The notes under the pieces are model-generated. The model was not told where the DNA came from and ran no database searches. It worked only from the letters and a program-made list of their open reading frames with translations. From Pseudomonadota bacterium (GTDB lineage Bacteria > Pseudomonadota > Alphaproteobacteria > Sphingomonadales > SMXR01): a DNA stretch of 64,000 nucleotides. The stretch spans positions 283 through 64,282 of the forward strand of contig JADFJJ010000004.1 in NCBI GenBank assembly GCA_022566215.1, written 5' to 3'. The position numbers and the translations under genes are program-made. The stretch's first letter is position 1. Every line of letters begins with the position of its first letter. Shown here piece after piece: positions 381 to 63,542 of this stretch.

Positions 381-2519
381 TTAATCCTTTTTTGCGGCTG
401 GAGCCCGGTAGAGCTCCCGGGCCGGAGCTTTTTTCTTGAGCGCCGCGCCGCGCCCGGAAAGCGACGGGTTGGTCATGAAATACTGATGGGCGGAAAACGC
501 CTCTCCCTCGACCTTCATGCGGCGGTAGCTTTCATCCCCTTGCAATAGCCAGCTTTGCAGGTTGTCGTTCAGGTTGGCCGCCATCACCTGGCCGACCACC
601 TGTTCGTGGACGGTGGGGTTTTCAATCGGCACCATGACCTCTACCCGGTGCCTGAAATTCCGCGCCATCCAGTCGGCTGAACTGATAAAAACCAGAGCCT
701 TCTTATTGGGCAGGCTGTGGCCGTTGCCAAAACAGAATACCCGGGCATGTTCAAGAAACCTGCCGACGATGCTCTTGACCCGGATATTGTCCGACATCCC
801 CGGAATGCCGGGCCTGAGACAGCAAATGCCGCGCACTATCAGGTCGATCTGAACCCCGGCGCACGACGCCTGATACATCTTGTCTATGATTTTGCGGTCC
901 GCCAGAGAATTCATTTTCGCCCAGAAAGCACCCGGCTTGCCGTTTTTCACGTTTTCTATTTCGTTATCAATCAGCTCCGTCAGGCGGGCTTCAATGCCGT
1001 GTGGCGACATCGATATTTTTTCAAATTTTTCAGGGGTGACGTAACCGGTGAGATAATTGAACACATGGGCGGCATCGCGGGTCAGCGCCGGGTCATCGGT
1101 GAAAAAGGAAAAATCGGTATAAATTTTGGCTTTGACCGGGTGATAATTGCCGGTGCCGAAATGAACGTAAGAAACCAGTTTATCCTTTTCCCGGCGAATG
1201 ATCATGGAAACCTTGGCGTGGGTTTTCAGGTCCATAAAGCCGTACACCACCTGGACCCCTGCCCGCTCCAGGTCACGGGCCCACTTGATGTTCTGTTCTT
1301 CCTCGAAGCGGGCTCTCAGCTCGACCTGGGCGGTGACGGATTTGCCCGCTTCGGCAGCCTCGATCAAAGCCCGGATGACCGCCGATTGCGACCCGGCGCG
1401 GTAGAGCGTCTGCTTGATTGCCACCACATCCGGGTCGGCGGCGGCCTGGCTCAAAAACTTGTGGACGACATCAAAACTTTCATAAGGATGGTGAACAATA
1501 AAATCCTTGGCCCGGATGGCGGCAAAAATATCGCCGCCAAACTCCTTGATGCGCTCTGGATAGCGCGGGGTATAAGGCTTGTACAACAAATCCGGGCGGT
1601 CGCTGACGATCAACTGACTAACGTCATTGACGCCCAGGATGCCGTCCACCTCGACCACGCTTTCGGGATCGACGTTAAACTCCTTGATCACCATCCGCTT
1701 CAGGTCTTCCGGCATCCCGGCATTCAGCTTGAGGCGGATGACGTTGCCCCGGCGGCGCCGTTTCAGGGCGCTTTCAAATACCCGGACCAGGTCTTGCGCC
1801 TCTTCCTCTATTTCCAGATCACTGTCGCGGATAACCCGGAACATCCCATGGCCGACAAACCGGTAGGCGGGAAACAGCCGGTCCAGAAACAAATGGATCA
1901 GGTTCTCAAGGCTGATAAAGCGGATTTTCTTCCCCGGCAGGCGGATAAACCGCTGCACCTGGTGAGGGATCGGCAGCAGCACCGCCATGGCTGCCTTCGC
2001 CCGCTTGGGTTTCAGGCTCAGGATCAGGCAGAACCCAAGATTGGGAATAAACGGGAAGGGATGGGCGGGGTCCACCGCCAGCGGGGTCAGGACCGGGAAA
2101 ATTTCCTCGAGAAAGAAATTTTCCAGCCAGTCTTTTTCCTTAAGTGTTACCTGCCCCGGTTCCAGCACCCGGAGGCCTTCTTTTTTCATTTCTTTCAGCA
2201 GCTTCCTCCAGCACGCTTGCTGGCCGGCCATCAACTTGTCCGCCAGCGCGTTGATTTTCGAAAGCTGCTGGGCCGGGGTCAGGCCGTCGTTGCTGACCAC
2301 ATTCAGGCCCGAGGCCACCTGGCCCTTGAGCCCGGCCACCCGCACCATATAAAATTCATCCAGGTTGGAGCCGGAAATCGACAGGAAATTGACCCGGTCC
2401 AGAAGTGGATGCCTGGGGTTTCCGGCTTCCTCCAACACCCGCATGTTAAAGCGCAACCACGATAGTTCCCGGTTGATATATTTTTTTTTCGGGCTGGCGG
2501 TTTTCCAGGTTTGTTTCAT
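381..2519 (-). CDS. ppk: polyphosphate kinase 1
   Basis: 712-aa ORF. N-terminal NRELSWLRFNMRVLEEA and two PLD-like C-terminal modules (HAKVSMIIRRE, GRFLEHARVF) are typical of PPK1. The start ATG overlaps the hdaA stop (ATGA). Confidence 0.95.
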   Translation of the reverse strand: MKQTWKTASPKKKYINRELSWLRFNMRVLEEAGNPRHPLLDRVNFLSISGSNLDEFYMVRVAGLKGQVASGLNVVSNDGLTPAQQLSKINALADKLMAGQQACWRKLLKEMKKEGLRVLEPGQVTLKEKDWLENFFLEEIFPVLTPLAVDPAHPFPFIPNLGFCLILSLKPKRAKAAMAVLLPIPHQVQRFIRLPGKKIRFISLENLIHLFLDRLFPAYRFVGHGMFRVIRDSDLEIEEEAQDLVRVFESALKRRRRGNVIRLKLNAGMPEDLKRMVIKEFNVDPESVVEVDGILGVNDVSQLIVSDRPDLLYKPYTPRYPERIKEFGGDIFAAIRAKDFIVHHPYESFDVVHKFLSQAAADPDVVAIKQTLYRAGSQSAVIRALIEAAEAGKSVTAQVELRARFEEEQNIKWARDLERAGVQVVYGFMDLKTHAKVSMIIRREKDKLVSYVHFGTGNYHPVKAKIYTDFSFFTDDPALTRDAAHVFNYLTGYVTPEKFEKISMSPHGIEARLTELIDNEIENVKNGKPGAFWAKMNSLADRKIIDKMYQASCAGVQIDLIVRGICCLRPGIPGMSDNIRVKSIVGRFLEHARVFCFGNGHSLPNKKALVFISSADWMARNFRHRVEVMVPIENPTVHEQVVGQVMAANLNDNLQSWLLQGDESYRRMKVEGEAFSAHQYFMTNPSLSGRGAALKKKAPARELYRAPAAKKD

Positions 2520-3172
2520 TGCTGCTCTATAACCTTTTTGGCCAGCGGAATGGTGATCCTGGTTTTTTTCTCCAGCGCCATGCGGTCAATCCGGGAAACG
2601 ATCACCTGAACGCTCCGGAAGGAACGCTCCATCCTTTTCAGCAGGAACGAAACAACCGCCTCATCGACCATGATCTGGCGGTCGGAAAACTGTTTCATCA
2701 TCGCCGCGCCGAGGATATCCTGATCCGGATCGGTAAGCCGCACCGAGGGCGTACTTTTCAGGCGCGAGGCCAAATCCTTCAACGACAGATCCCATTTGGC
2801 CGGGTTTTCCGCTGCTGTCATCAGCAGGTAGCCCTGGTTCGCCCCGACCCAGTTATAGAGGTGCAGCAGCGCCCGCCAATCGCTGGTCCGTTCGGCATTT
2901 TCAACAATCACCGCCCGGCCAAGCTGCGGGACCATTTCCCTGGTAAGCTCCCCGGCTTCAATCTGGACCGCCCCCGCCCGCCCCTGCCAGACGTTGGCCA
3001 GATGGGTTTTGCCGCTGGCGCCAGGCCCCACCAGCAGCAGCGCGTGTGAAGGCCAATCGGGCCAGGCCTGGATATAATCCGCGGCCTCACGGTTGCAGCC
3101 GCCGATCACAAAGTCTTCCATCGAATGGGACTGCAGGACCGGGAAATCTAGGATGTATTGATTGGATTCCAT
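2516..3172 (-). CDS. hdaA: DnaA regulatory inactivator HdaA (DnaA domain III/IV-like)
   Basis: Walker A LLVGPGASGKTHLANVW in a short DnaA-like AAA+ protein. Start placed at ATG 3172 (MESNQYILDF...). The longer ORF-track start at 3247 would overlap the upstream transporter gene. Confidence 0.8.
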   Translation of the reverse strand: MESNQYILDFPVLQSHSMEDFVIGGCNREAADYIQAWPDWPSHALLLVGPGASGKTHLANVWQGRAGAVQIEAGELTREMVPQLGRAVIVENAERTSDWRALLHLYNWVGANQGYLLMTAAENPAKWDLSLKDLASRLKSTPSVRLTDPDQDILGAAMMKQFSDRQIMVDEAVVSFLLKRMERSFRSVQVIVSRIDRMALEKKTRITIPLAKKVIEQQ

Positions 3173-26445: not shown

Positions 26446-27221
26446 AAACCAGGGTAAAAATATCAATCCGGAATTTGACCAAAAGCTTTGGCTCCAACCA
26501 GGTTCTCAAAGGGCTCGACCTCGATATCATGGAAGGCGAATCGGTGGTTGTGATCGGCGGCTCCGGCACCGGCAAGTCGGTGCTGGTCAAATGCATCCTG
26601 GGCCTGTTGGCGCCGGATAGCGGCGAGATCCTGATCGACGGCCGCGACATGACCACTGCCAGCCGCGCCGAACATGGCGAATTTATGAAAAAGGTCGGCA
26701 TGCTGTTCCAGGGGGGCGCGCTGTTTGATTCCCTCACGGTCTGGGAAAACGTCGCCTTCGGCCTGATCCGGGCGCACGGCATGAACAAGGATGAAGCCCA
26801 CGGGATTGCGATCAAAAAACTGGCCCGGGTCGGGCTCGGGGAAGACGTCAGCGGCCTGACCCCGGCGGAGCTGTCGGGCGGCATGAAAAAGCGCGTCGCG
26901 CTGGCCCGGGCGATCGCCGCCGAGCCCGAGATCATCTTCTTCGACGAGCCGACCACCGGCCTCGACCCGATCATGGCCGATGTCATCAACCGCCTGATCA
27001 CCGAATGCGTCAAGGAGCTCGGCGCCACCACCCTGACCATCACCCACGATATGTCGAGCGTCCGCAAGATCGCCGACCAGGCTGCCATGCTCCACGACGG
27101 CCGGATCATCTGGCATGGCAGCCGCCGCGCCATGGACACCACCAAAAACCCCTTCGTGCGCCAATTCACCACCGGCAGCGCCAAGGGGCCGATCAAAATG
27201 ATCACCCGAGGGCCGGAGTGA
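26442..27221 (+). CDS. mlaF: MlaF-family ABC transporter ATP-binding protein
   Basis: Walker A GGSGTGKS, signature LSGGMKKRVALARA and Walker B IIFFDEPTTGLD. 4-nt overlap with mlaE. Confidence 0.9.
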   Translation: MKTRVKISIRNLTKSFGSNQVLKGLDLDIMEGESVVVIGGSGTGKSVLVKCILGLLAPDSGEILIDGRDMTTASRAEHGEFMKKVGMLFQGGALFDSLTVWENVAFGLIRAHGMNKDEAHGIAIKKLARVGLGEDVSGLTPAELSGGMKKRVALARAIAAEPEIIFFDEPTTGLDPIMADVINRLITECVKELGATTLTITHDMSSVRKIADQAAMLHDGRIIWHGSRRAMDTTKNPFVRQFTTGSAKGPIKMITRGPE

Positions 27222-28585
27222 TGGCCAGCCTTAAGCAAACCTTCGTGTGCCAGTCGTGCGGGGCGGTCAGCAGCAAATGGCAGGGCAAATGCGATGCCTG
27301 CGGGCAATGGAATTCTTTTGTCGAGGAAGCCCCGCTGGAAGCCCCCGGCTTTGAGGGCGGCGCCAAAAAGGGCAAGGTGGTGACGTTCGCCAGTCTCGCC
27401 GCCAAGACTCAGCTGGACCCCCGCCTGATGACCGGGATCGGGGAATTCGACCGGGCGCTGGGCGGCGGAGCGGTGCCCGGCACGGCGATCCTGGTCGGCG
27501 GCGATCCCGGCATCGGCAAATCCACCCTGCTGCTGCAGGCGTTGGCCAACATGGCCAAAAGGGGCCTGAAGTGCGTTTACATTACGGGCGAAGAATCGGT
27601 CGACCAGATCAGGCTGCGGGCGGCGCGCCTTGGGCTCGGGGATGCCGACGTCAAGCTGGCCTCCGAGACCCGGGTGCGTGATATCCTGACCACTCTTTCC
27701 GGGGCTGAAAAATTTGATGTGGTGGTGATCGATTCGATCCAGACCATGTATTCGGACGCCGCCGGCGCCTCCCCCGGGTCGGTCACACAGGTCCGGCTGT
27801 CGTCCCAGAACCTGATCCACTTCGCCAAGAAATCCGGGACCGCGATCTTCCTGATCGGCCATGTCACCAAGGACGGCCAGATCGCCGGCCCCAAGACCAT
27901 GGAGCACATGGTCGACACGGTTTTGTATTTCGAAGGCGAGAAAACCCAACAGTACCGGATCCTGCGGGCGGTCAAGAACCGTTTCGGCGGGATCGATGAA
28001 ATCGGCGTGTTCGAAATGACCGGAAAGGGTCTGATGGAGGTTAAAAACCCCTCCTCGCTGTTTCTTTCCGAACACAAGGAAAACACTGAAGGGGTGGCGG
28101 TGTTCCCTTCTGTAGAGGGAACCCGTTCGCTGCTGGCGGAGATTGAGGCGCTGGTGGTCCCCTCGTCCGCCGCCAACCCGAGGCGCGCGGTGGTCGGCTG
28201 GGACGCCGGAAGGCTGGCGATGATCCTGGCGGTCCTGGATTCCCGGCTCGGCCTCGGTTTCGGGGCCTCGGACATTTACCTCAACATCGCCGGCGGCCTT
28301 CGGGTGGTGGAGCCGGCGGCGGACCTGCCGGCGGCGGCGGCGCTGATCTCGTCACTGACCAAACGCGCGCTGCCGGCCGATATGGTTATGATCGGGGAAA
28401 TTTCGCTGTCCGGGGAGATCCGCCCGGTCACGCACCTTAAAGCCAGATTGAAGGAAGCGGAAAAGCTCGGTTTCGCCCGCGCTCTGGTGCCCGCCGCTTC
28501 CAAACTGCCCAAAACCTCGCTTAACCTGATAAAAGCGGAAAAAGTGGCGGACTTACTGGATTTATTTGAAATGAAAAAAGGATAG
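27221..28585 (+). CDS. radA: DNA repair protein RadA
   Basis: Zinc ribbon CQSCGAVSSKWQGKCDACGQWNSF, Walker A GGDPGIGKSTLLLQ, KNRFG and a Lon-like C-domain. ATG 27221 overlaps the mlaF stop (TGATG). The last ~10 codons are AT-rich and contain the left island repeat. Confidence 0.95.
   Translation: MASLKQTFVCQSCGAVSSKWQGKCDACGQWNSFVEEAPLEAPGFEGGAKKGKVVTFASLAAKTQLDPRLMTGIGEFDRALGGGAVPGTAILVGGDPGIGKSTLLLQALANMAKRGLKCVYITGEESVDQIRLRAARLGLGDADVKLASETRVRDILTTLSGAEKFDVVVIDSIQTMYSDAAGASPGSVTQVRLSSQNLIHFAKKSGTAIFLIGHVTKDGQIAGPKTMEHMVDTVLYFEGEKTQQYRILRAVKNRFGGIDEIGVFEMTGKGLMEVKNPSSLFLSEHKENTEGVAVFPSVEGTRSLLAEIEALVVPSSAANPRRAVVGWDAGRLAMILAVLDSRLGLGFGASDIYLNIAGGLRVVEPAADLPAAAALISSLTKRALPADMVMIGEISLSGEIRPVTHLKARLKEAEKLGFARALVPAASKLPKTSLNLIKAEKVADLLDLFEMKKG
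28557..28569. repeat. left copy of the 13-bp direct repeat TGGATTTATTTGA (att-like)
   Basis: Exact match to 30325-30337. Lies in the final codons of radA (LDLFEMKKG*). Confidence 0.85.
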
Positions 28586-43667: not shown

Positions 43668-43741
43668 TGCCCCGTCGTATAACGGTAATACTACGGACTC
43701 TGAATCCGTCAATCGTGGTTCGAATCCACGCGGGGCATCCA
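43668..43741 (+). tRNA. tRNA-Gln (anticodon CTG)
   Basis: Hand-folded cloverleaf: acceptor TGCCCCG/CGGGGCA, D-stem GTAT/ATAC, anticodon stem ACGGA/TCCGT with loop CTCTGAA, T-arm CGTGG-TTCGAAT-CCACG, and encoded CCA at 43739-43741. Confidence 0.93.
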
Positions 43742-55361: not shown

Positions 55362-56468
55362 TTAACCCTCTTTCGCCGCCGTGGGGGTTTTTTCACTATC
55401 CTGGTTTGACGGGGCATCCTTGTCACCGGTCATCAGCGACTCGCCAACCACCCCGGCGTTCTTGCGGATCGCACTTTCAATGGTTTCGGCAATCTCGGGA
55501 TTTTCCATCAGGAATTTCTTGGCGTTCTCGCGGCCCTGACCGATCCGCTGGCTGTCGTAGGAATACCAGGAGCCGGATTTCTCGATCAGCTCGGCCTTGA
55601 CCCCGAGGTCGACCAGCTCGCCTTCCCGGGAAATGCCCTTGCCGTACATGATGTCGAACTCGACCTTCCTGAAGGGCGGCGCCAGTTTGTTCTTGACCAC
55701 CTTGACCCGGGTCGCGTTACCGACAATCTCGTCGCCCTCCTTGATCTGGCCGATGCGCCGGATATCAAGCCTGACCGAAGCATAAAACTTCAGCGCGTTG
55801 CCGCCGCTGGTGGTCTCGGGATTGCCGTACAAGACGCCGATTTTCATGCGGATCTGGTTGATGAAAATCACCATGCACCCGGATTTGGAAATATGGGCGG
55901 TCAACTTGCGCAGGGCCTGGCTCATCAGCCGCGCCTGCAGGCCGACGTGGATGTCGCCCATCTCGCCCTCAATTTCGGCTCTGGGGGTCAGCGCCGCAAC
56001 GCTGTCGATTACCAGAACGTCGACCGCGCCCGAGCGCACCAGGGTATCGGTGATCTCGAGCGCCTGTTCGCCGGTGTCGGGCTGGGAGATCAGAAGCTCG
56101 TTGACGTCAACCCCGAGCTTTTTGGCATAGATCGGGTCGAGCGCGTGTTCGGCGTCGATAAAAGCGGCGATCCCGCCCCTTTTCTGGGCTTCGGCTATGA
56201 CATGGAGCGCGAGCGTGGTCTTGCCCGAACTCTCGGAACCGTAAATCTCGACCACCCGGCCCTTGGGCAGACCGCCGATACCGAGCGCGATATCCAGGCC
56301 GAGCGATCCGGAGGGTATGGTTTCCACCTCGATGGCGGCGCCGTCCTGGCCGAGGCGCATCACCGAGCCCTTGCCGTAAGCCCGCTCAATCTGGCTGAGT
56401 GCCGCTTCAAGCGCGCGCTGTTTGTCACTGCCGGTTTCTTTCACCACTCTCAAAGGCCCCGTTGTCAT
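55362..56468 (-). CDS. recA: recombinase RecA
   Basis: 368 aa with Walker [22 protein letters not shown] and the L1/L2 regions. Confidence 0.97.
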
Positions 56469-56586
56469 TTCTGTCTCCCCTGGTTATTTCACAGGCTTCC
56501 AGCCGTTGCAATAGAATCTAGACTTCGACTGCTGACTGTTTTGTAAAACTTTTTGCCATCATCATTAATTTATTCCTGTCACGAAT

Positions 56587-56601
56587 GTACACGTTTTGTT
56601 C
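56587..56601. promoter_or_regulatory. candidate alphaproteobacterial SOS (LexA) box upstream of recA
   Basis: GTAC-ACGTTTT-GTTC matches the GTTC-N7-GTTC consensus with one mismatch, about 120 nt upstream of the recA start. Confidence 0.3.
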
Positions 56602-56659
56602 TCTTTTGCAAGCGAATTCTTCAAACGCTTGATTTTACGGTGTTTTTTATTGTTCTGAT

Positions 56660-56848
56660 CTAATATTGTCCAACCGTCAGGCGGTTTTCGACATCATAAG
56701 TGTAAGTCCATGTCTCATCACTCAGGAGATTGCCGGCATCGTCATAGGTCAGCCCGACCAGGATGCCGTCTATCGTGACGTCGGTGTACTGGTTGAGGCC
56801 GTTGGAGGAGTAGCTCTCGACTTTGCTGGCGGGAACCGAGTACTGGTA
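56660..56848 (-). pseudogene. orphan Rhs/YD-repeat protein fragment (no start codon, truncated at both ends)
   Basis: Own minus-strand translation: YQYSVPASKVESYSSNGLNQYTDVTIDGILVGLTYDDAGNLLSDETWTYTYDVENRLTVGQY*. It contains YDxxGNL and YxYDxxNRL YD-repeat signatures. The frame is open back to 56890 but has no ATG/GTG/TTG. Confidence 0.7.
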
Positions 56849-56877: not shown

Positions 56878-59346
56878 TTACCCCTTCCCTTCATCGAGCA
56901 CGGTGCGGACTTTTTCGGCCAGCACCTGGAGCGAAAAGGGTTTCGGGATGAACGAAAAACGCTCGCGCTTGAGCCCCTTGTGAAAGCCAATTTCGGCATA
57001 GCCGGAGATCAGGATGATCTTGATCTCGGGGTATTTCCCGATCACTTTTCTGGCCAGCGTCGGCCCGTCCATCTGCGGCATCACCACGTCCGAGATCAAC
57101 AGGTCGATCGGCCCGGTGTAGCTTTCCAGAACCTCCAGCGCGGCCTCGCCGTTGTCCGCCTCGAGCACCTTGTAACCCTTGTTCTGGAGCGCCCGGCTGA
57201 CAAAGGTGCGGACCGGATCCTCGTCCTCGACAAACAGAATAACCTCGGTTCCGGTCAGGTCCCTGGGGACGGCGTCTTTCTCGGCCGGCTTGGTGGTTTC
57301 AACTTTTTCGGCGGGATCGAGCGCCGGAAAGAAAATATCAAAAGTCGAGCCCTCCCCTTGCTTGCTGTCGACAAAGATCGCGCCTCCGGTCTGGGTAATA
57401 ATGCCGTAGGCGGTGGACAGCCCGAGGCCGGTTCCCTTGCCCACCTCCTTGGTGGTGAAGAACGGCTCGAACACCTTGTCGAGGTGCTCTTTGGCGATCC
57501 CGGTGCCGGTATCCGAGACCATGATGCGGACGTAATCGTTTTCCTTGAGGCCGCTGCGGCCCAGTTTCGGGATGTCCCGGGCGGCGATGTTCTGGGTGGT
57601 GATGGTGAGCGTCCCGCCCTCCGGCATGGCGTCCCGGGCGTTGACCGCCAGGTTGACGATCACCTGTTCGAACTGGCTCTGGTCAGCGCGTATCTTCCTC
57701 AAATTCTTGGCGTTGGTCATACGGAGAGTAATCTTTTCCCCAATCAGGCGGCGGATCAGGTTGGTAAGGTCGGAAAGGATATCGGTCACGTCCAGCACCT
57801 TGGGGTGAAGCGCCTGGCGCCGGGAAAAGGCCAGCAGCTGGCGGATCAAATCGGCCGCCCGGTTGGCGTTCTGCTTGATCTGGATCAGGTCGGCGAACGA
57901 CTGGTCGCCAGCCTTGTGGCGCATCAAAAGAAGGTCGCAAAAACCGAGGATGGCGGTCAGCAGGTTGTTAAAGTCGTGCGCGACCCCGCCCGCCAGCTGG
58001 CCCACGGCTTGCATTTTTTGCGCCTGGACGAATTGCAGTTCAAGCCGTTTGGTCTCCGAGGTGTCGATCAGGTAAAGGATGCCGAGGCGCCGGTTGCCCC
58101 CCTTCAAGGGACTGAAAAAGGCCTGGATGACATCCTTGCCGGCGGCATCGAAGAAAAATTCCAGCGGAGTTTGCAGGTCCTTCCCCTGCTTCGCCGTCTT
58201 GACCTTTTGCTTCAGCGGCGCCTTGGTTTCCTTGGGCATAAAATCCGTCAGGATATCGCCTTTCAGAAGTGGTTTTTTGTTGTATTTGCCAAACAGGTCG
58301 ACACACGCCCGGTTGAGCTGTTCAACCCTGAAATCAAGAGTATCGACCACCGCGATGGCGATCGGCGCATCGGCGACATATTCAGCGAACTCTTTTGATC
58401 CGACCGGGGCGGCCTCGGCGCCCTCCTCGCCCAATTTCTGCACCAGGGCAAAGTAAAACTCGCTCTTCCCGTCCTCGGCCCCGGGGATATCGAGCCAGTC
58501 AACCGTCAGGTTTTTGGCGCGCAGCAGTTTGGCCGAAAAAACCTCTTCGGCGTCCTTGTTGTGGATCGCCTTGGGCTTGACCCCCAGCAACTCGGTGGCG
58601 AACGGATTGGCGTAGCGGATTCTTTTATTCTTGCCGGTAATAACCAGTCCCAGGCTGAAACGGTCAAGCAACGCCTGGAAGTGGTCTTCCATGTTGCCGA
58701 TCGCCGCCAGCGGGGTGGCCGAAACCCCGGCCTGGGCAAACGTCCACATGATAAAGGGGCCTTGCGGGCGGGCCGTGATCAGCGGGCTTGTCTGGTCTTT
58801 GCCGCCCTGCACCCTGAGGCTGGCGGAGTTACCCTCCAGGCTGGCTTTCAGAAGCATCCGGATGGTTTCCCCATAGATCCGGTCAAACAGCAGTTTCTTG
58901 ATTGAAGGGGATCTTCCCTTGAAAAAATCCTGGTATTTTTTGTTGGCCGACAGCAGCCGCCCTTCCCGGTCGCTGAGAACCGTCGCCTCGTCCATGTGGG
59001 CGAGCGCGGCAGCCATTATTTTCGGGTCCATACGGGTTACCTGGTCTTTGGCGCTGAGCATGAAAAAACCGATCGCAAGGACGGTGAAAAAGAGGATCAG
59101 CGAGACCACCGGGGTCGCCCCGGCGAGATTGCCGTCAACCAGATAAAAGCCGATCGTGGCCAGCGCCGTCAGCCCGCCGGCAAGCGCCACGCCAATGTAT
59201 TTTTCACTGCCGGTGATGGCCGTTTCAGGTTTCTGGAGGCCGCTGCCGAACCAGTATTCCCCGGCGGCGCCCATTTGCGTTTGGCCGGGGCGGCGGGCTG
59301 CCTCCGGGGGGGGTGAAATGTTTGTCTGGTCCATTGCTCGCGCCAC
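56878..59346 (-). CDS. hybrid sensor histidine kinase/response regulator (2 TM, PAS-like regions, HisKA-HATPase, C-terminal REC)
   Basis: H-box [18 protein letters not shown]-box VNARDAM, G1 DTGTGI, G2 GKGTGLGLS and [11 protein letters not shown]...[14 protein letters not shown]. The ORF-track start 59346 is GTG; ATG 59334 is an alternative. Confidence 0.9.
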
Positions 59347-59859: not shown

Positions 59860-60208
59860 GAAAGTCTCCTTGAATGAACTGCATTTGTCTTGTTATCGGC
59901 GCGTTAATGACGCGGAAATTTGACGCGCGGGGGTTTTATAATAACAAGTGCTTTTGATTGCAAGGGGGGTTTTGAGATTTTTTTTACAAGGCCCGGGTTA
60001 TCGGCTGCGGCCCCGGCAAGATTAAAAAAAGCACCCCAAGGCCGTACCAAGCAAACACCACCCGGAGTTATCTTTATAAACTAAAGCAACTAAGAATGAG
60101 TATTACCATTATTTGATTACATTTATTTGTGAATCAATCTGCCTGATATTTGTTTTTTTATTCATTTCACAGGTGATTAAATTAAATTACTTGCCTGAAA
60201 TTCTTTTT

Positions 60209-60255
60209 AATAATAACATAATAGATACTTTTTGATAATAATATAATAAATACTT
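60209..60255. repeat. two 22-bp near-identical direct repeats in an AT-rich tract
   Basis: AATAATAACATAATAGATACTT (60209-60230) and GATAATAATATAATAAATACTT (60234-60255) match at 19/22. Confidence 0.7.
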
Positions 60256-60750
60256 GAGCATCGGGATAATGTTATATTTTAATTTAGCAACCAAAAGAGA
60301 TTTTAAATAACTACCGCGCCAACAAAAATTGCCGAGGGGGGTATGCAAATTTCTCGAGACAACAGCACCGGACACCGGATCGCCGCGAAACTCATTCAAG
60401 CTTTTCGGGGGCGCTGCCTATCCGGGAGCGGGACCCGCCGCTTTTTTCAACGCTTGAGAGGTCATACCGGTTTCTTCTTGATGACTGTCTGGGGCAGCTG
60501 GCGGGCAAAGCGCTAAAACCCATAAGGCGAATGAAAGATGTTGTTGAAAAAATGCTAAGAATAAGCGGCGGCGGCGTGATCTTTTTGACGTTCGCCGGCG
60601 GGCGGTTACCGCCGCAGCGCACGGCACAAATAGGGCCAGAACGCTGGCTTACACGGTGGAAGGAAGGCTTTTGGCCTTGGAAATGATGGGCCTGATGGCG
60701 GATTGCTGCTATCGATTTAAGGTTCCCGGCAATTTAGAAGGAGGCTACCA

Positions 60751-61050
60751 ATGAAATACCAATTGAAGTTATATGTCACCGGGCGCACCGGACCCTCAAC
60801 GCGCGCCATCAAAAACCTTGAGCGCATCTTACAGGCGCAAACCGGTGATGATTATGATTTCAAAGTGATTGATGTTCTTAAGCATCCGCAGCTGGCGGAA
60901 GACGAAAAAATTCTTGCCACCCCGACGCTGGTAAAGACTTTTCCAGAGCCGATACGCAAAATCATAGGTGATCTCAGCCAGCTTGAAAACGTTTTGCTGG
61001 GACTGGATATAATTCCCTCCCCGGGTTCAACCAAAAAGGAAAAATCCTGA
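60751..61050 (+). CDS. kaiB: circadian clock protein KaiB
   Basis: 99 aa. [23 protein letters not shown]...[40 protein letters not shown] closely parallels cyanobacterial KaiB (LKLYVAGNTPNS...[22 protein letters not shown]...RRIIGDLS). GGAGG RBS upstream. Confidence 0.9.
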
Positions 61051-61357
61051 TGACCAAGCCGGCAAAAATAATCCCAATCAAGAAGTGCCTGCTGGGGGTT
61101 CCCGGTTTCGGCCTGATTACGGATGGAGGCGCTCCCGAGGGCCGGACAACCCTGCTGGCGGGCGCCGCCGGCAGCGGCAAGACCGCGTCCTGGCCCGGCA
61201 ATTTCCGGCCGGGGGGGCGCGGCTTTACGATGACCCGGGCGCTATGGTGAGGTTTGAGGAAAACCCCGGAGAAATGTTTACCAATGCCGCTTCGCTGGGC
61301 TGGGATTCTTGCCGGAATCCCGGTCCATGCGTTTGCAGCCGAGAAGGAGCATCTTGA
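61050..61357 (+). pseudogene. kaiC: kaiC remnant (first ~100 codons only, with a frameshift)
   Basis: Frame 1 from ATG 61050 (TGATG overlap with kaiB): IKKCLLGVPGFGLITDGGAPEGRTTLLAGAAGSGKT (KaiC CI Walker A). After about 61185 the homology continues in another frame: VLARQFPAGGARLYDDPGAMVRFEENPGEMFTNAASLGWD. Nothing KaiC-like follows, although a full kaiC is about 1.5 kb. Confidence 0.7.
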
Positions 61358-61426
61358 GCAGATGTTAGGGGGCGGCAAGTAAATAAAGGGCAAGCCGGAT
61401 TGCGCGAAACCAAGAGGAGAACCAGT

Positions 61427-62809
61427 TTGCGTGTCTTAGTCATAGAAGATGACATAAATGATGTAAAACTGGTGCGCCGTTACCTGGGAAAGGGCGCCCG
61501 GGGGGATTATGTCATATGCTTTGCCGACGCCGTTGCGGCGCTGGCGAAAAATAGTTACGATATCGCGCTTCTGGATCTCGGTCTGCCGGAATCGAGCGGC
61601 TTGAATACCCTTTCCAGGCTGCGCAAAATTGCGCCAACGCTTCCGATTGTTATTATTAGCGCACTTGAGGACGAGGCAGTGGCCCGAAAGGCAGTACAAC
61701 AAGGGGCCCAGGACTACCTGGTGAAGGGAAAGTTTGATGCCGACCTGCTGCACCACACCTTGCGTTATGGGCTGGAGCGTCAAAACGCCAGCCAGCAGTA
61801 TCTCGCCCTGCTTGAGCAGAGCCCGGATGGCGTTTTGCTGATTAGTCTTAAGGGCGAGATACTTTTCACCAATGCCGCGACTGAAGAGCTGCTCGGTAAA
61901 AAGGGAGACAAGCTTAAGGGACAGCTGTTTGGCATCCCCACCGTTAGCGAGGGAGAGACCCCTGAACTGCAGCTGCCCGGAGGCCGGACAGCAGAGTTGC
62001 GGGTGGCCGAAATTAAGTGGGAAAACAAGCCCGCCTACCTCACCATGCTGCGTGATATCACCGGGCGCAAAAATGCCCAACTGGAACTGGAACGCCAGGC
62101 AAAAGAGCTTAAAGCCAGCAATATTGACCTTGAGCGGTTTGCCCATGTGGTGAGCTATACTCTCCAGGCGCCGCTCAGGGGCATCCGCACCTATGTACAA
62201 ATATTAATTGAAGACGGGGAAGATACGCTGGATCAGGAATCGTTAAAAAACATTGCTGTAATCGACAACTGTGCGGACCACGCTCAAAACCTGGTCAAGA
62301 ATTTGATGACCTTTTCGGTTTCACAGCGCAAGCCATACATCCTCAGGCAAAATGATATCCAGGAAATACTGGAAGAAGCGATCGACGATCTTGCGCTGGA
62401 GATCAAGAAAAGCAAGGCAAAAATTACCCACGGTTGCTTGCCGAAGATTGTTGTCGATTACGGTCAGTTTTTGCATTTGATTGAAAATCTGATTGACAAC
62501 GCGATTAAATTCCGGGGGAAAAAGGCCCCGCGGGTTCATCTCTCCGCCAGGAAAAATGATACGGAATGGATTTTTTCGGTGGCCGACAACGGCATTGGCA
62601 TAGATAAAAAATATTATGAGGAAGTTTTCCAGGTTTTTGAACAACTGCACCCCCAAATGAAATATTCCGGAACCGGCATCGGCCTGGCGGTCTGCAAAAA
62701 GATTGTAAATAGACACAACGGCCGGATCTGGCTTGAATCAAAACCCGGCCAGGGGTCGACTTTTTATTTCTCCATTCCCTTCGATCCACGCATTACCCGG
62801 AACAAATAA
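61427..62809 (+). CDS. REC-PAS-histidine kinase-like protein with a degenerate H-box
   Basis: REC (VLVIEDD...DIALLDLGLPESSG...YLVKGK), PAS (LEQSPDGVLLISLKGEILFTNAA), N-box ENLIDNAIKF, G1 DNGIGI and G2 GTGIGLAV. The H-box reads FAHVVSYTLQAPLRGI. Start placed at TTG 61427, 7 nt after AGGAGA; the ORF track starts at 61400. Confidence 0.87.
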   Translation: MRVLVIEDDINDVKLVRRYLGKGARGDYVICFADAVAALAKNSYDIALLDLGLPESSGLNTLSRLRKIAPTLPIVIISALEDEAVARKAVQQGAQDYLVKGKFDADLLHHTLRYGLERQNASQQYLALLEQSPDGVLLISLKGEILFTNAATEELLGKKGDKLKGQLFGIPTVSEGETPELQLPGGRTAELRVAEIKWENKPAYLTMLRDITGRKNAQLELERQAKELKASNIDLERFAHVVSYTLQAPLRGIRTYVQILIEDGEDTLDQESLKNIAVIDNCADHAQNLVKNLMTFSVSQRKPYILRQNDIQEILEEAIDDLALEIKKSKAKITHGCLPKIVVDYGQFLHLIENLIDNAIKFRGKKAPRVHLSARKNDTEWIFSVADNGIGIDKKYYEEVFQVFEQLHPQMKYSGTGIGLAVCKKIVNRHNGRIWLESKPGQGSTFYFSIPFDPRITRNK

Positions 62810-62927
62810 GCCGGCCGTCTGCTGAAAAGTCTTTTTCTTGAAATCCCGGCGGCTTTCGGTTGCAGGTTTTTGCAAGCGTGTTATGCTACCGCTACTTAAT
62901 TTCAATGCTTGGATAGGGGCAACTCGA

Positions 62928-63023
62928 ATGGGAAAAATTCTCTCGGATATTAAACTGACCGTGATTACGGGCTTCGTGCTCACGGCCGTCATTTATTACA
63001 TTTCACCGATCATTGCCGGTTAA
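62928..63023 (+). CDS. possible 31-aa single-TM peptide
   Basis: MGKILSDIKLTVITGFVLTAVIYYISPIIAG*, 15 nt upstream of the next membrane-protein gene. No family recognised. Confidence 0.25.
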   Translation: MGKILSDIKLTVITGFVLTAVIYYISPIIAG

Positions 63024-63038
63024 GGGGGGGATAGACAA

Positions 63039-63542
63039 ATGGACTTTCCTGACATTACATTTCTGGTCCGCTGGCTGCACGTGCTGTCAGCGATCATGTG
63101 GATCGGTCTTCTATGGTATCTCAATTTCGTCCAGACGCCGCAGATGGCGAAAATCCCCGACAACCTGAAACCGGCGATCTCCGGCCATATCGCCCCGGCG
63201 GTTTTGTTCTGGTTCCGCTGGGCGGCGCTCGGCACTGTTATCTTCGGCCTGCTGTTGGCGCACCTCAACGGCTACCTTCATCAGGCCATGGCCCTGGGCT
63301 GGGGGATGGGATCGCCGGAGCTGACGCTGCTGGGCATCGGCATGTGGTTCGGCCTGGTGATGGCCGCAAACGTCTGGTTTATCATCTGGCCCAACCAGAA
63401 AAAGGTGCTGGGGCTGGTCAAGGCCACCAAGGAGGCCAAGGCGGCGGCGGCAAAAACCGCCGGGATGGCCAGCCGGATCAACACGCTGTTGTCGATCCCG
63501 ATGCTGTTCGCGATGGTCGCGTTTCAAAACAGCCCGTTCTAA
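63039..63542 (+). CDS. integral membrane protein of unknown function (possibly related to the N-terminal membrane domain of PuuD-type proteins)
   Basis: 167 aa with about 4 TM helices. The motif RWLHVLSAIMWIGLLWYLNFVQTP is present. AGGGGGGG RBS upstream. The family link is from memory only. Confidence 0.6.
   Translation: MDFPDITFLVRWLHVLSAIMWIGLLWYLNFVQTPQMAKIPDNLKPAISGHIAPAVLFWFRWAALGTVIFGLLLAHLNGYLHQAMALGWGMGSPELTLLGIGMWFGLVMAANVWFIIWPNQKKVLGLVKATKEAKAAAAKTAGMASRINTLLSIPMLFAMVAFQNSPF

Follow-up and report, generated by a model that had tools for sequence, protein, structure and literature searches.

Purifying selection on kaiB and a Tyr-substituted kinase gene beside remnants of kaiC and a kaiA3-like gene in an alphaproteobacterium

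In a 64,000-nt stretch of alphaproteobacterial DNA (Pseudomonadota bacterium of the Sphingomonadales, GenBank assembly GCA_022566215.1, contig JADFJJ010000004.1, positions 283 to 64,282 of the forward strand), which we call the window and which is all that is visible of this genome, an intact kaiB gene stands between the remnants of a kaiA3-like gene and of a kaiC, and is followed by a gene for a sensor kinase-like protein with Tyr at the position of the phospho-acceptor His. By its gene content and order the locus reads as an eroded four-gene cassette (kaiA3-like, kaiB, kaiC, REC-PAS kinase) of the KaiA3B3C3 clock or timer type. Neither KaiC nor KaiA3 can be encoded by it, so no timer can be built from this locus. 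Our best explanation is that kaiC and kaiA3 are dead while kaiB and the kinase still function without a KaiC encoded beside them, a statement that, taken as a whole, we consider evenly poised between true and false. Its parts differ in strength: the structural and evolutionary part we hold to be nearly certain, the continued function of kaiB and the kinase is probable from their substitution patterns, and the specific mechanism, in which KaiB would act on the receiver domain of a pseudokinase, is a tentative proposal by analogy. The elements of the cassette, in window coordinates, are as follows.

60405..60754, + strand: kaiA3-like pseudogene, C-terminal KaiA-like domain only, with a frameshift near 60573 (tblastx, tblastn)
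60751..61050, + strand: kaiB, intact, 99 aa, with a strong predicted ribosome-binding site (GAAGGAGG) 5' of its start
61050..61306, + strand: kaiC 5' remnant, codons 1-85, the start of the CI domain including the Walker A motif GAAGSGKT (PRK09302 matches, tblastn)
61184..61185, + strand: 2-bp insertion, GC, frameshifting the kaiC remnant and private to clade A (contig alignments)
61302..61306, + strand: deletion junction, pentamer GGGAT (read from the sequence)
61302..61382, + strand: kaiC 3' remnant, the last 26 codons and stop (GILAGIPVHAFAAEKEHLEQMLGGGK*), frame 0 (six-frame peptide search)
61307..61357, + strand: out-of-frame read-through, 16 missense codons and a stop at 61355-61357 (translation)
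61427..62809, + strand: REC-PAS-HisKA-HATPase sensor kinase-like gene, 460 aa, TTG start, predicted ribosome-binding site GAGGAG (Pfam)
62156..62158, + strand: TAT, Tyr244 at the phospho-acceptor His position (SYTLQAPLR versus SHDLQEPLR in relatives)

The kaiC remnant opens at the ATG at 61050, which overlaps the kaiB stop (TGA, 61048-61050) in the sequence TGATG, just as an earlier note made from the sequence alone had described. The same note had read a KaiC-like frame from this ATG through the CI Walker A motif, and frame 0 from 61050 indeed matches positions 1-45 of the KaiC model PRK09302 (515 positions) through GAAGSGKT, with a frame-2 open reading frame (ORF) taking up positions 46-86. 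With 11 full-length KaiCs as queries, tblastn returned two segments, 61071-61184 and 61187-61306 (42-58% identity), beyond which that frame had no more matches. The jump of frame that had been placed near 61185 is present as the 2-bp insertion (ACCGCGTCC in the window versus ACCGTCC in relatives), but it is a secondary and clade-specific lesion, the primary one being an old deletion. Similarly, the homology said to stop near 61300 does end in that frame, at 61306, but a 3' tail of kaiC that had been missed survives at 61302-61382: when its peptide was searched in six frames against our comparator material of 165 fetched loci, nearly all top matches were the extreme C-termini of KaiCs (GIL[SA]G.PVH..P.D.ER).

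The two parts of kaiC meet in the pentamer GGGAT, which is read twice, as TGG GAT (W D) at the end of the 5' part and as GGG ATT (G I) at the start of the 3' part. Since 395-396 residues lie between these junction motifs in intact KaiCs (n = 11), one deletion of ∼1,193 nt accounts for the loss, in agreement with the 1.2 kb of kaiC that had been reckoned missing, and because this length is 2 modulo 3 the fusion is out of frame. We thus conclude that kaiC was lost by one out-of-frame deletion joining codon 85 to the last 26 codons. The CII domain is deleted, and with it the phosphorylation sites, the reading frame is interrupted, and what is left is not a double-domain KaiC of ∼500 aa. The 5-nt microhomology at the junction is a signature of slippage or of microhomology-mediated deletion, which would be the probable route of the loss; among the collections searched (5.8 billion proteins, together with genome and metagenome scans) there was no closer relative with an intact kaiC on which the deletion could be mapped at the nucleotide level.

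The possibility that the remnant belongs to another RecA-superfamily ATPase family, on which the earlier identification would have foundered, was rejected: KaiC models are its best matches, it covers their positions 1-45 and 46-86 contiguously, it lies in the place expected of kaiC, and it keeps a KaiC-type C-terminus. Elsewhere in the 64 kb no second kaiC was found, tblastn with the 11 KaiCs matching otherwise only recA (55362-56468) and radA (27005-28585). An antisense ORF over the GC-rich remnant (60974-61393, - strand, 139 aa) is interrupted in clade B, and it is almost certainly a spurious frame.

The reality and relative age of these lesions can be read from 12 related contigs from different samples (NCBI, ENA and Logan; 93-99% identical to the window), which were retrieved by exact-match and homology look-ups. 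These fall into clade A (the window and L166-L171) and clade B, which includes L003 and L004 and a subclade of L005 and L172. The junction is reached by 11 of the 12 contigs, from at least 10 samples or assemblies, and the same large kaiC deletion is found in all 11. The 2-bp insertion is confined to clade A, and because the 66-aa ORF that results from it recurs on six independent contigs (NCBI, ENA, Logan), the frameshift is not a sequencing error; kaiC here is a genuine pseudogene, as had been proposed. Clade B is without the insertion, with an uninterrupted ORF of 101 codons in L003 and L004, and in L005 and L172 a further in-frame deletion of 30 bp (61299-61328) removes most of the read-through and leaves 91 codons. 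From this distribution, the deletion is an old lesion common to both clades, and the frameshift arose later, in clade A only.

Two contigs could be taken to hint at an artefact of assembly or sequencing, with a full kaiC in the true sequence: L001 and L002, two 99%-identical metagenome contigs, both end inside the kaiC remnant (at window positions 61085 and 61144), possibly at a bubble in the assembly graph. However, 11 independently assembled contigs from NCBI, ENA and Logan cross the same junction into the kinase gene, and the junction, the tail and the secondary lesions of single lineages fit together on one phylogeny, so that we regard the chance of an artefact as negligible. Positions 1-314 of L002 match nothing in the window or the fetched loci, and this contig is either a chimera or rearranged at dksA.

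The remnant of kaiC is evolving neutrally and gaining lineage-specific lesions. Pairwise ratios of nonsynonymous to synonymous substitution rates (dN/dS, or omega; Nei-Gojobori estimates) range from 0.9 to 4.9 for the remnant, with pN/pS ∼1.0-1.6 for the 5' part, and a separate count of variable codons over all contigs gave 5 synonymous and 20 nonsynonymous variants for the 5' part and read-through together (1 and 7, respectively, in the read-through at 61307-61357), a distribution without constraint. The kaiC remnant (333 bp) has taken two indels and that of kaiA3 one, whereas kaiB is free of them. These figures also bear on whether the 101- or 91-codon ORF of the sister clade might be a functional mini-KaiC, a Walker A peptide of which the window has a broken copy. 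One could point to the uninterrupted ORF in L003 and L004 (101 aa), to the maintenance of frame after the 30-bp deletion in L005 and L172 (91 aa), and to the conserved start codon and overlap with the kaiB stop. Against this, omega is 0.9-4.9 with 20 of the 25 variants nonsynonymous, the last 16 codons read through the 3' end of kaiC in the wrong frame, a RecA-like domain could presumably not fold from 85 of its residues, and the ORF is frameshifted throughout clade A. We consider a mini-KaiC very improbable.

The contrast with kaiB is in the substitutions of the same contigs. The gene is without indels or stops in every contig, its pairwise omega is 0.17-0.56 at a divergence across the compared lineages of dS ∼0.07-0.16, and variants present in at least two contigs divide into 10 synonymous and 10 nonsynonymous (p ∼0.006-0.009 versus neutrality). 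Thus kaiB is under purifying selection despite having no adjacent kaiC, which is the outcome of the dN/dS comparison that the earlier note had suggested. Because all of the compared lineages already carry the kaiC deletion, this constraint, like that on the kinase gene described below, postdates the loss of kaiC. KaiB itself was rightly read as full length, covering all 82 positions of Pfam PF07689 (94.2 bits, 4e-27; cut-off 27 bits), and is by its sequence an ordinary member of the KaiB family. In an alignment of 117 homologues it retains all columns that are 100% conserved (A19, D41, P46, A49, A56-T57-P58, P65, P67, G73-D74 and G84) and nearly all of those conserved at ≥95%, together with D86 (98% conserved) in the C-terminal G-L-D region, which is the fold-switching region; it deviates at four well-conserved columns, L27, T31, K44 and F64. 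The description of this protein as strongly cyanobacterial-like did not stand. It falls below the cyanobacterial equivalog TIGR02654 (105.4 bits; cut-off 145.3) and barely passes NCBIfam PRK09301 (NF006798; 110.9 bits, cut-off 110), and its nearest homologues outside its own clade are non-cyanobacterial proteins located in kaiA3-type cassettes. Identity is 92-93% within the clade and then falls to at most 67% among 5.8 billion proteins, or at most 65% in the genome scan. We conclude that KaiB is probably still functional, whether it acts free of KaiC or together with one encoded at another site.

The second gene that has outlived kaiC lies directly 3' of the remnant, where the earlier note had placed a response regulator or kinase gene, and extends from a TTG at 61427 to 62809. 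Its product has the domains Response_reg (8e-18), PAS (7e-7), HisKA (3e-7; 30.9 bits, cut-off 26.9) and HATPase_c (1.5e-27; 96.7 bits), and the same 460-aa gene is annotated by NCBI on L166. A striking feature is its H-box, FAHVVSYTLQAPLRGI, as compared to FAYVASHDLQEPLR in homologues: the phospho-acceptor His is replaced by Tyr244, and the neighboring acidic residues are altered as well (D to T, E to A). Tyr is present in all seven contigs of the clade that cover the site. His, by comparison, is found in 52 of 53 kinase homologues from the comparator loci, including the kinases directly 3' of an intact kaiC in L038 and L059, and, when 1.84 billion proteins were searched exhaustively, in 148 of the 150 best representatives. 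Outside the clade the best relatives are REC-PAS kinases of the SHDLQEPLR type, 41-47% identical (below ∼50% in the metagenome scan). A His four residues before Tyr244 (FAH) is not an obvious replacement site, because it is found in ∼10% of normal homologues. These sequences indicate that the His-to-Tyr change is unique to this clade and lies within what would have been a clock-output kinase, which presumably cannot autophosphorylate on the canonical His. The N, G1, F and G2 motifs read intact (ENLIDNAIKF, DNGIGI, FQVFEQL and GTGIGL), and in the receiver domain the canonical acidic pair, Asp50, Ser and Lys are all in place.

The kinase gene has been under purifying selection since the losses of kaiC and kaiA3. 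Its omega is 0.24-0.39 overall and 0.06-0.3 in the PAS-DHp-CA part (0.06-0.08 between clades), its variants number 49 synonymous and 66 nonsynonymous (p = 4e-6 versus neutrality; p ≤2e-4 over the tests made), and in 1,383 bp the contigs have one in-frame deletion of 3 bp and one doubtful deletion of 1 bp. Divergence between clades A and B is a mosaic over 61350-61790, the 69-nt spacer being 22% different and the dS of the receiver part 0.25-0.31; for the remainder of the kinase gene dS is 0.03-0.08, and upstream non-coding DNA differs by 4-5%. A more divergent allele seems to have contributed this tract by recombination.

That the ancestral unit also had a fourth gene is suggested by the sequence 5' of kaiB. 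When the 890-bp gap there was compared by tblastx with the fetched loci, it matched in many genomes the gene immediately upstream of kaiB; the two stretches 60405-60572 (frame 0) and 60569-60754 (frame 2) correspond to residues ∼165-278 of proteins of 278-304 aa that consist of a receiver and a C-terminal domain (E 1e-7 to 4e-9). In the comparators the receiver is clear (Response_reg at 1e-20 to 4e-22), and the C-terminal domain of ∼130 aa ends in ...GPRDVVEIH...EEGRL..LELMG.LVSYYR. In the window, nothing 5' of ∼60405 matches the comparators, the receiver and linker being missing, so that the remnant retains ∼115 frameshifted C-terminal codons, the stop of which (TGA) overlaps the kaiB ATG in the sequence ATGA; in clade B it has two extra bases at 60496. 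KaiA3 has been described in Synechocystis as a chimera of a receiver and a KaiA-like protein encoded 5' of kaiB3, with the synteny also present in Chloroflexus, Roseiflexus, Rhodospirillum and Bradyrhizobium (PMC11372060), and it is mainly on that work that the KaiA relationship of the C-terminal domain rests. Our own comparisons found a weak relation: a 19-sequence profile of the comparator domain aligned to the C-terminal domain of Synechococcus elongatus KaiA with hhalign E = 4.5e-4, a probability of 33% and 69 columns; KaiA chains were 3 of 10 marginal matches of this profile in the PDB (E 0.36-1.4); and the Pfam KaiA model matched neither the upstream remnant nor the comparator proteins.

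A KaiA3-like gene lies 5' of kaiB in 26 of the 74 loci used as kaiB comparators, the best KaiB matches included, and ends 2-104 nt before kaiB in 25 of the 26 (228 nt in the remaining one). Among the KaiA3-type cassettes with enough downstream sequence, 15 of 21 have a same-strand homologue of the kinase ≤2.5 kb from kaiC; eight of these 15 share the full REC-PAS-histidine kinase layout, and four of the eight directly adjoin kaiC. Because the comparator cassettes share this gene order, we take the ancestral unit to have been kaiA3, kaiB, kaiC and a REC-PAS kinase. The receiver of the kinase is a close paralogue of the KaiA3-like receiver: it is 32-44% identical to the receivers of KaiA3-like proteins (E down to 1e-31; L143, L059, L012 and L021), and so as similar to these as to those of orthologous kinases (30-39%). 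Between it and the window's other receiver domain no similarity could be detected.

The cassette lies on a small island that varies between strains, bounded as follows.

59985..62877, no strand: strain-variable island carrying the kai cassette, right edge between ∼62835 and 62877
60060..60300, no strand: AT-rich stretch (24% GC) at the left end of the island, in place of the 5' half of kaiA3 (composition profile)

The best evidence for the island is L176 (JADFOE010000025.1), a relative whose distance from the window is about that of clade B (RecA 99% identical in amino acids, flanks 92-96% identical in nucleotides), in which blastn homology breaks off after 59984 and starts again at 62878, the empty site having 33 nt where the window has 2,893 nt. 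In the more distant L173-L175 (RecA 83-85%) synteny is kept, with no kai genes between dksA and a Urate_ox_N-like gene. Composition differs in the same sense, GC content being 0.50 in the island versus 0.575-0.58 in the flanks, and that at third codon positions 0.53 in kaiB and 0.59 in the kinase gene versus 0.69-0.83 in core genes. The surroundings are core chromosome (acrB, pssA, psd, icd, alaS, recA, a CckA-like hybrid kinase and dksA), and RecA places the host among unclassified Alphaproteobacteria, the nearest named RecAs being 79-86% identical (Sphingomonadales metagenome-assembled genomes, Kordiimonas and Iodidimonas). No convincing direct repeats or att-like sites were found at the island ends. 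Horizontal acquisition of the ∼2.9 kb by the common ancestor of the sampled lineages is most likely, a single gain before clades A and B diverged being more parsimonious than repeated losses. The earlier suggestion that a KaiBC hourglass module may be caught in decay is right in that kaiC is dead, but this is no native alphaproteobacterial hourglass: the unit had four genes, on an island that close relatives lack; for the same reason there are no intact kaiBC operons in close relatives with which the locus could be aligned, as had been suggested. The truncation of kaiA3 lies ∼0.4 kb inside the left end, beside the AT-rich stretch, and one might speculate that it dates from the acquisition.

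Several smaller features of the surroundings deserve mention. The AT-rich stretch contains two sigma-70-like matches on the + strand (60195-60242), which are consensus matches only, and an Rfam scan of the window found no RNA family in or near the kai locus, its sole match being a tRNA at 43668-43738. In L175 a different gene, for a 2OG-Fe(II) oxygenase (2446-3045), occupies the same intergenic site, and variable genes thus seem to have a hot spot between dksA and the Urate_ox_N-like gene. To the right of the island, a small conserved ORF (62929-63023; 31 aa, a predicted membrane peptide) lies directly 5' of the 167-aa Urate_ox_N-like membrane protein (63039-63542); because homology to relatives resumes just before it, by ∼50 nt, it is taken to be a core gene, of a kind that short-ORF filters would miss. 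A second AT-rich intergenic stretch (56400-56700; 37-46% GC) separates recA from the hybrid kinase, and in the corresponding gap of L176 there is an ORF of 136 aa without Pfam matches.

The origin of the island has to be weighed when asking what kaiB is selected for. KaiB and the kinase might serve a Kai timer whose full-length KaiC, and perhaps KaiA3, is encoded elsewhere in the genome, the local kaiC having been redundant and lost; many bacteria have several copies of kaiC, and purifying selection on kaiB would be accounted for. However, no second kaiC lies in the 64 kb, whose RecA-superfamily genes are otherwise recA and radA alone. The cassette came in recently as a foreign island, so that a compatible resident KaiC is not to be expected a priori, and the loss of the phospho-acceptor His from the kinase argues that the classical output route is gone. 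On balance we think such a partner in trans unlikely.

Alternatively, the whole island could be functionless debris in which kaiB and the kinase gene have merely not yet been hit, the low omega values reflecting selection in a previous host or the short time elapsed. The island is absent from close relatives, two of its four genes are already dead, the change of His to Tyr may itself be an inactivating lesion, and with three indels in ∼680 bp of dead DNA an intact kaiB of 300 bp would be unsurprising (P ∼0.27, an estimate). Nonetheless, the deletion and the Tyr are common to all compared lineages, so that the synonymous excess in kaiB (p ∼0.009) and in the kinase gene (p ≤2e-4; core omega 0.06-0.08) accrued afterwards, and over the same tree the adjacent remnants have omega ≥1. 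Wholesale decay thus appears improbable, slightly more so than a KaiC in trans.

Some observations weigh against our explanation that kaiB and the kinase still function without a neighboring KaiC, and in part favor debris. In L167 and L168, which are two independent assemblies, TAC has become TAA at codon 44 of the receiver (window-equivalent 61556-61558), six codons before the phospho-acceptor Asp, and omega in the rest of the kinase is 0.43 in this lineage as compared to 0.06-0.08 elsewhere; there the kinase seems to be in the course of being lost, although a higher omega in the nonsense lineage is also what one would expect if the other lineages were constrained. A 1-bp deletion in a T5 run of L004, from Logan (window-equivalent 62468), splits the kinase gene and is either a real frameshift or an assembly error. 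The substitution counts for kaiB are small (∼20-30 events), and for a KaiB an omega of 0.2-0.5 is not especially low. A relative with flanks 92-96% identical lacks the island, which is therefore dispensable. A second kaiC beyond the visible 64 kb could make KaiB a normal partner in trans. Cyanobacterial KaiB docks receiver-like domains when it is fold-switched on KaiC, and we found no precedent for such docking by KaiB free of KaiC.

If kaiB and the kinase are indeed still functional without a KaiC beside them, one could envision that KaiB and the His-to-Tyr kinase-like protein still act as a pair. In what is our best guess at the mechanism, KaiB would bind the N-terminal receiver domain of the kinase, which in turn would be a non-phosphorylating scaffold or sensor that signals by binding, like DivL. 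Docking of this receiver by KaiB had been hinted at in the earlier note, and the idea gains a little from the paralogy with the KaiA3 receiver. In cyanobacteria, as Tseng et al. reportedly found in 2017, the pseudo-receiver of CikA docks fold-switched KaiB. The resemblance is that kaiB here adjoins the gene for a kinase with a receiver-fold domain, a paralogue of the KaiA3 receiver; unlike in cyanobacteria, where the complex forms on the KaiC ring, no ring could be assembled from this locus, and the receiver is a canonical one (Asp50) rather than a pseudo-receiver. Because KaiA3 and the kinase share a receiver type, both are likely to present it to the same partner: in the intact system KaiA3 and the kinase would probably have offered the same kind of domain to a common protein, plausibly KaiB. 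A still bolder version, that KaiB and a DivL-like derivative of a clock kinase form a self-sufficient two-protein module without any KaiC, KaiB acting directly on the receiver, strikes us as rather unlikely.

Comparison with known systems places the locus between several of them. It resembles KaiA3-KaiB3-KaiC3 of Synechocystis sp. PCC 6803 (Koebler et al. 2024, PMC11372060) in the order kaiA3-like, kaiB, kaiC with overlaps of stops and starts, but with ∼115 frameshifted codons left of kaiA3 and 85 + 26 codons of kaiC, neither an oscillator nor an hourglass is possible from it. With the KaiBC hourglass systems of Rhodobacter sphaeroides and Rhodopseudomonas palustris it shares an alphaproteobacterial host and a PAS histidine kinase 3' of kaiB-kaiC, the kaiBC operon of R. 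sphaeroides including a kinase (PMC5520375). Those systems have an intact KaiC and no KaiA, in contrast to a foreign island of apparent KaiA3-type ancestry with its KaiC deleted and a kinase without the phospho-acceptor His. As for the kinase, DivL of Caulobacter crescentus has been described as unique in having Tyr at the histidine phosphorylation site while keeping all boxes of a histidine kinase, and works without kinase or phosphatase activity by binding a phosphorylated response regulator (PMC4211667, Childers et al. 2014). The kinase in the window likewise has Tyr at the His site, keeps the other boxes and is under selection, but it has an N-terminal receiver domain, of which DivL, a multi-PAS protein that binds DivK~P and controls CckA, has none, its nearest relatives are of the REC-PAS SHDLQEPLR type at 41-47% identity, and no DivL model is among its NCBIfam matches listed (the best 25 of 163). 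The kinase is therefore not an orthologue of DivL, and its Tyr substitution arose independently. A side observation in this connection is that the CckA-like hybrid kinase between recA and dksA (56878-59346, - strand; 822 aa, PAS-PAS-HisKA-HATPase-REC), conserved in all relatives, lies 1.4 kb from the Tyr-substituted kinase, an arrangement that echoes the pairing of DivL and CckA; because the island is foreign, this is probably a coincidence.

Pseudogenized kai genes and horizontally moving kai clusters are unsurprising in themselves, and on a sober view this is a small, dispensable island in an uncultured organism, with a kinase that is being lost in part of the population, and maybe a mere snapshot of stepwise decay after transfer. 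What is unusual, besides the conserved KaiB and the His-to-Tyr conversion of the linked kinase, is that the order of decay of the cassette can be read from a population of contigs. In surveys of Kai proteins, KaiB has been reported only together with a full-length KaiC (PMC5520375), and the conservation of KaiB after the loss of both of its neighbors in cis runs against that rule. Regardless of the role of KaiB, a kinase with Tyr at the His site and a strongly conserved sensor and catalytic core points to a second, independent origin of a non-phosphorylating pseudo-histidine kinase. Should the genome be without another kaiC, this locus would be a natural knock-out, suggesting that KaiB is able to work independently of KaiC, its most plausible partner being the neighboring kinase; and if a KaiC-free module were true, it would represent a natural re-use of a fold-switching clock protein outside any Kai oscillator.

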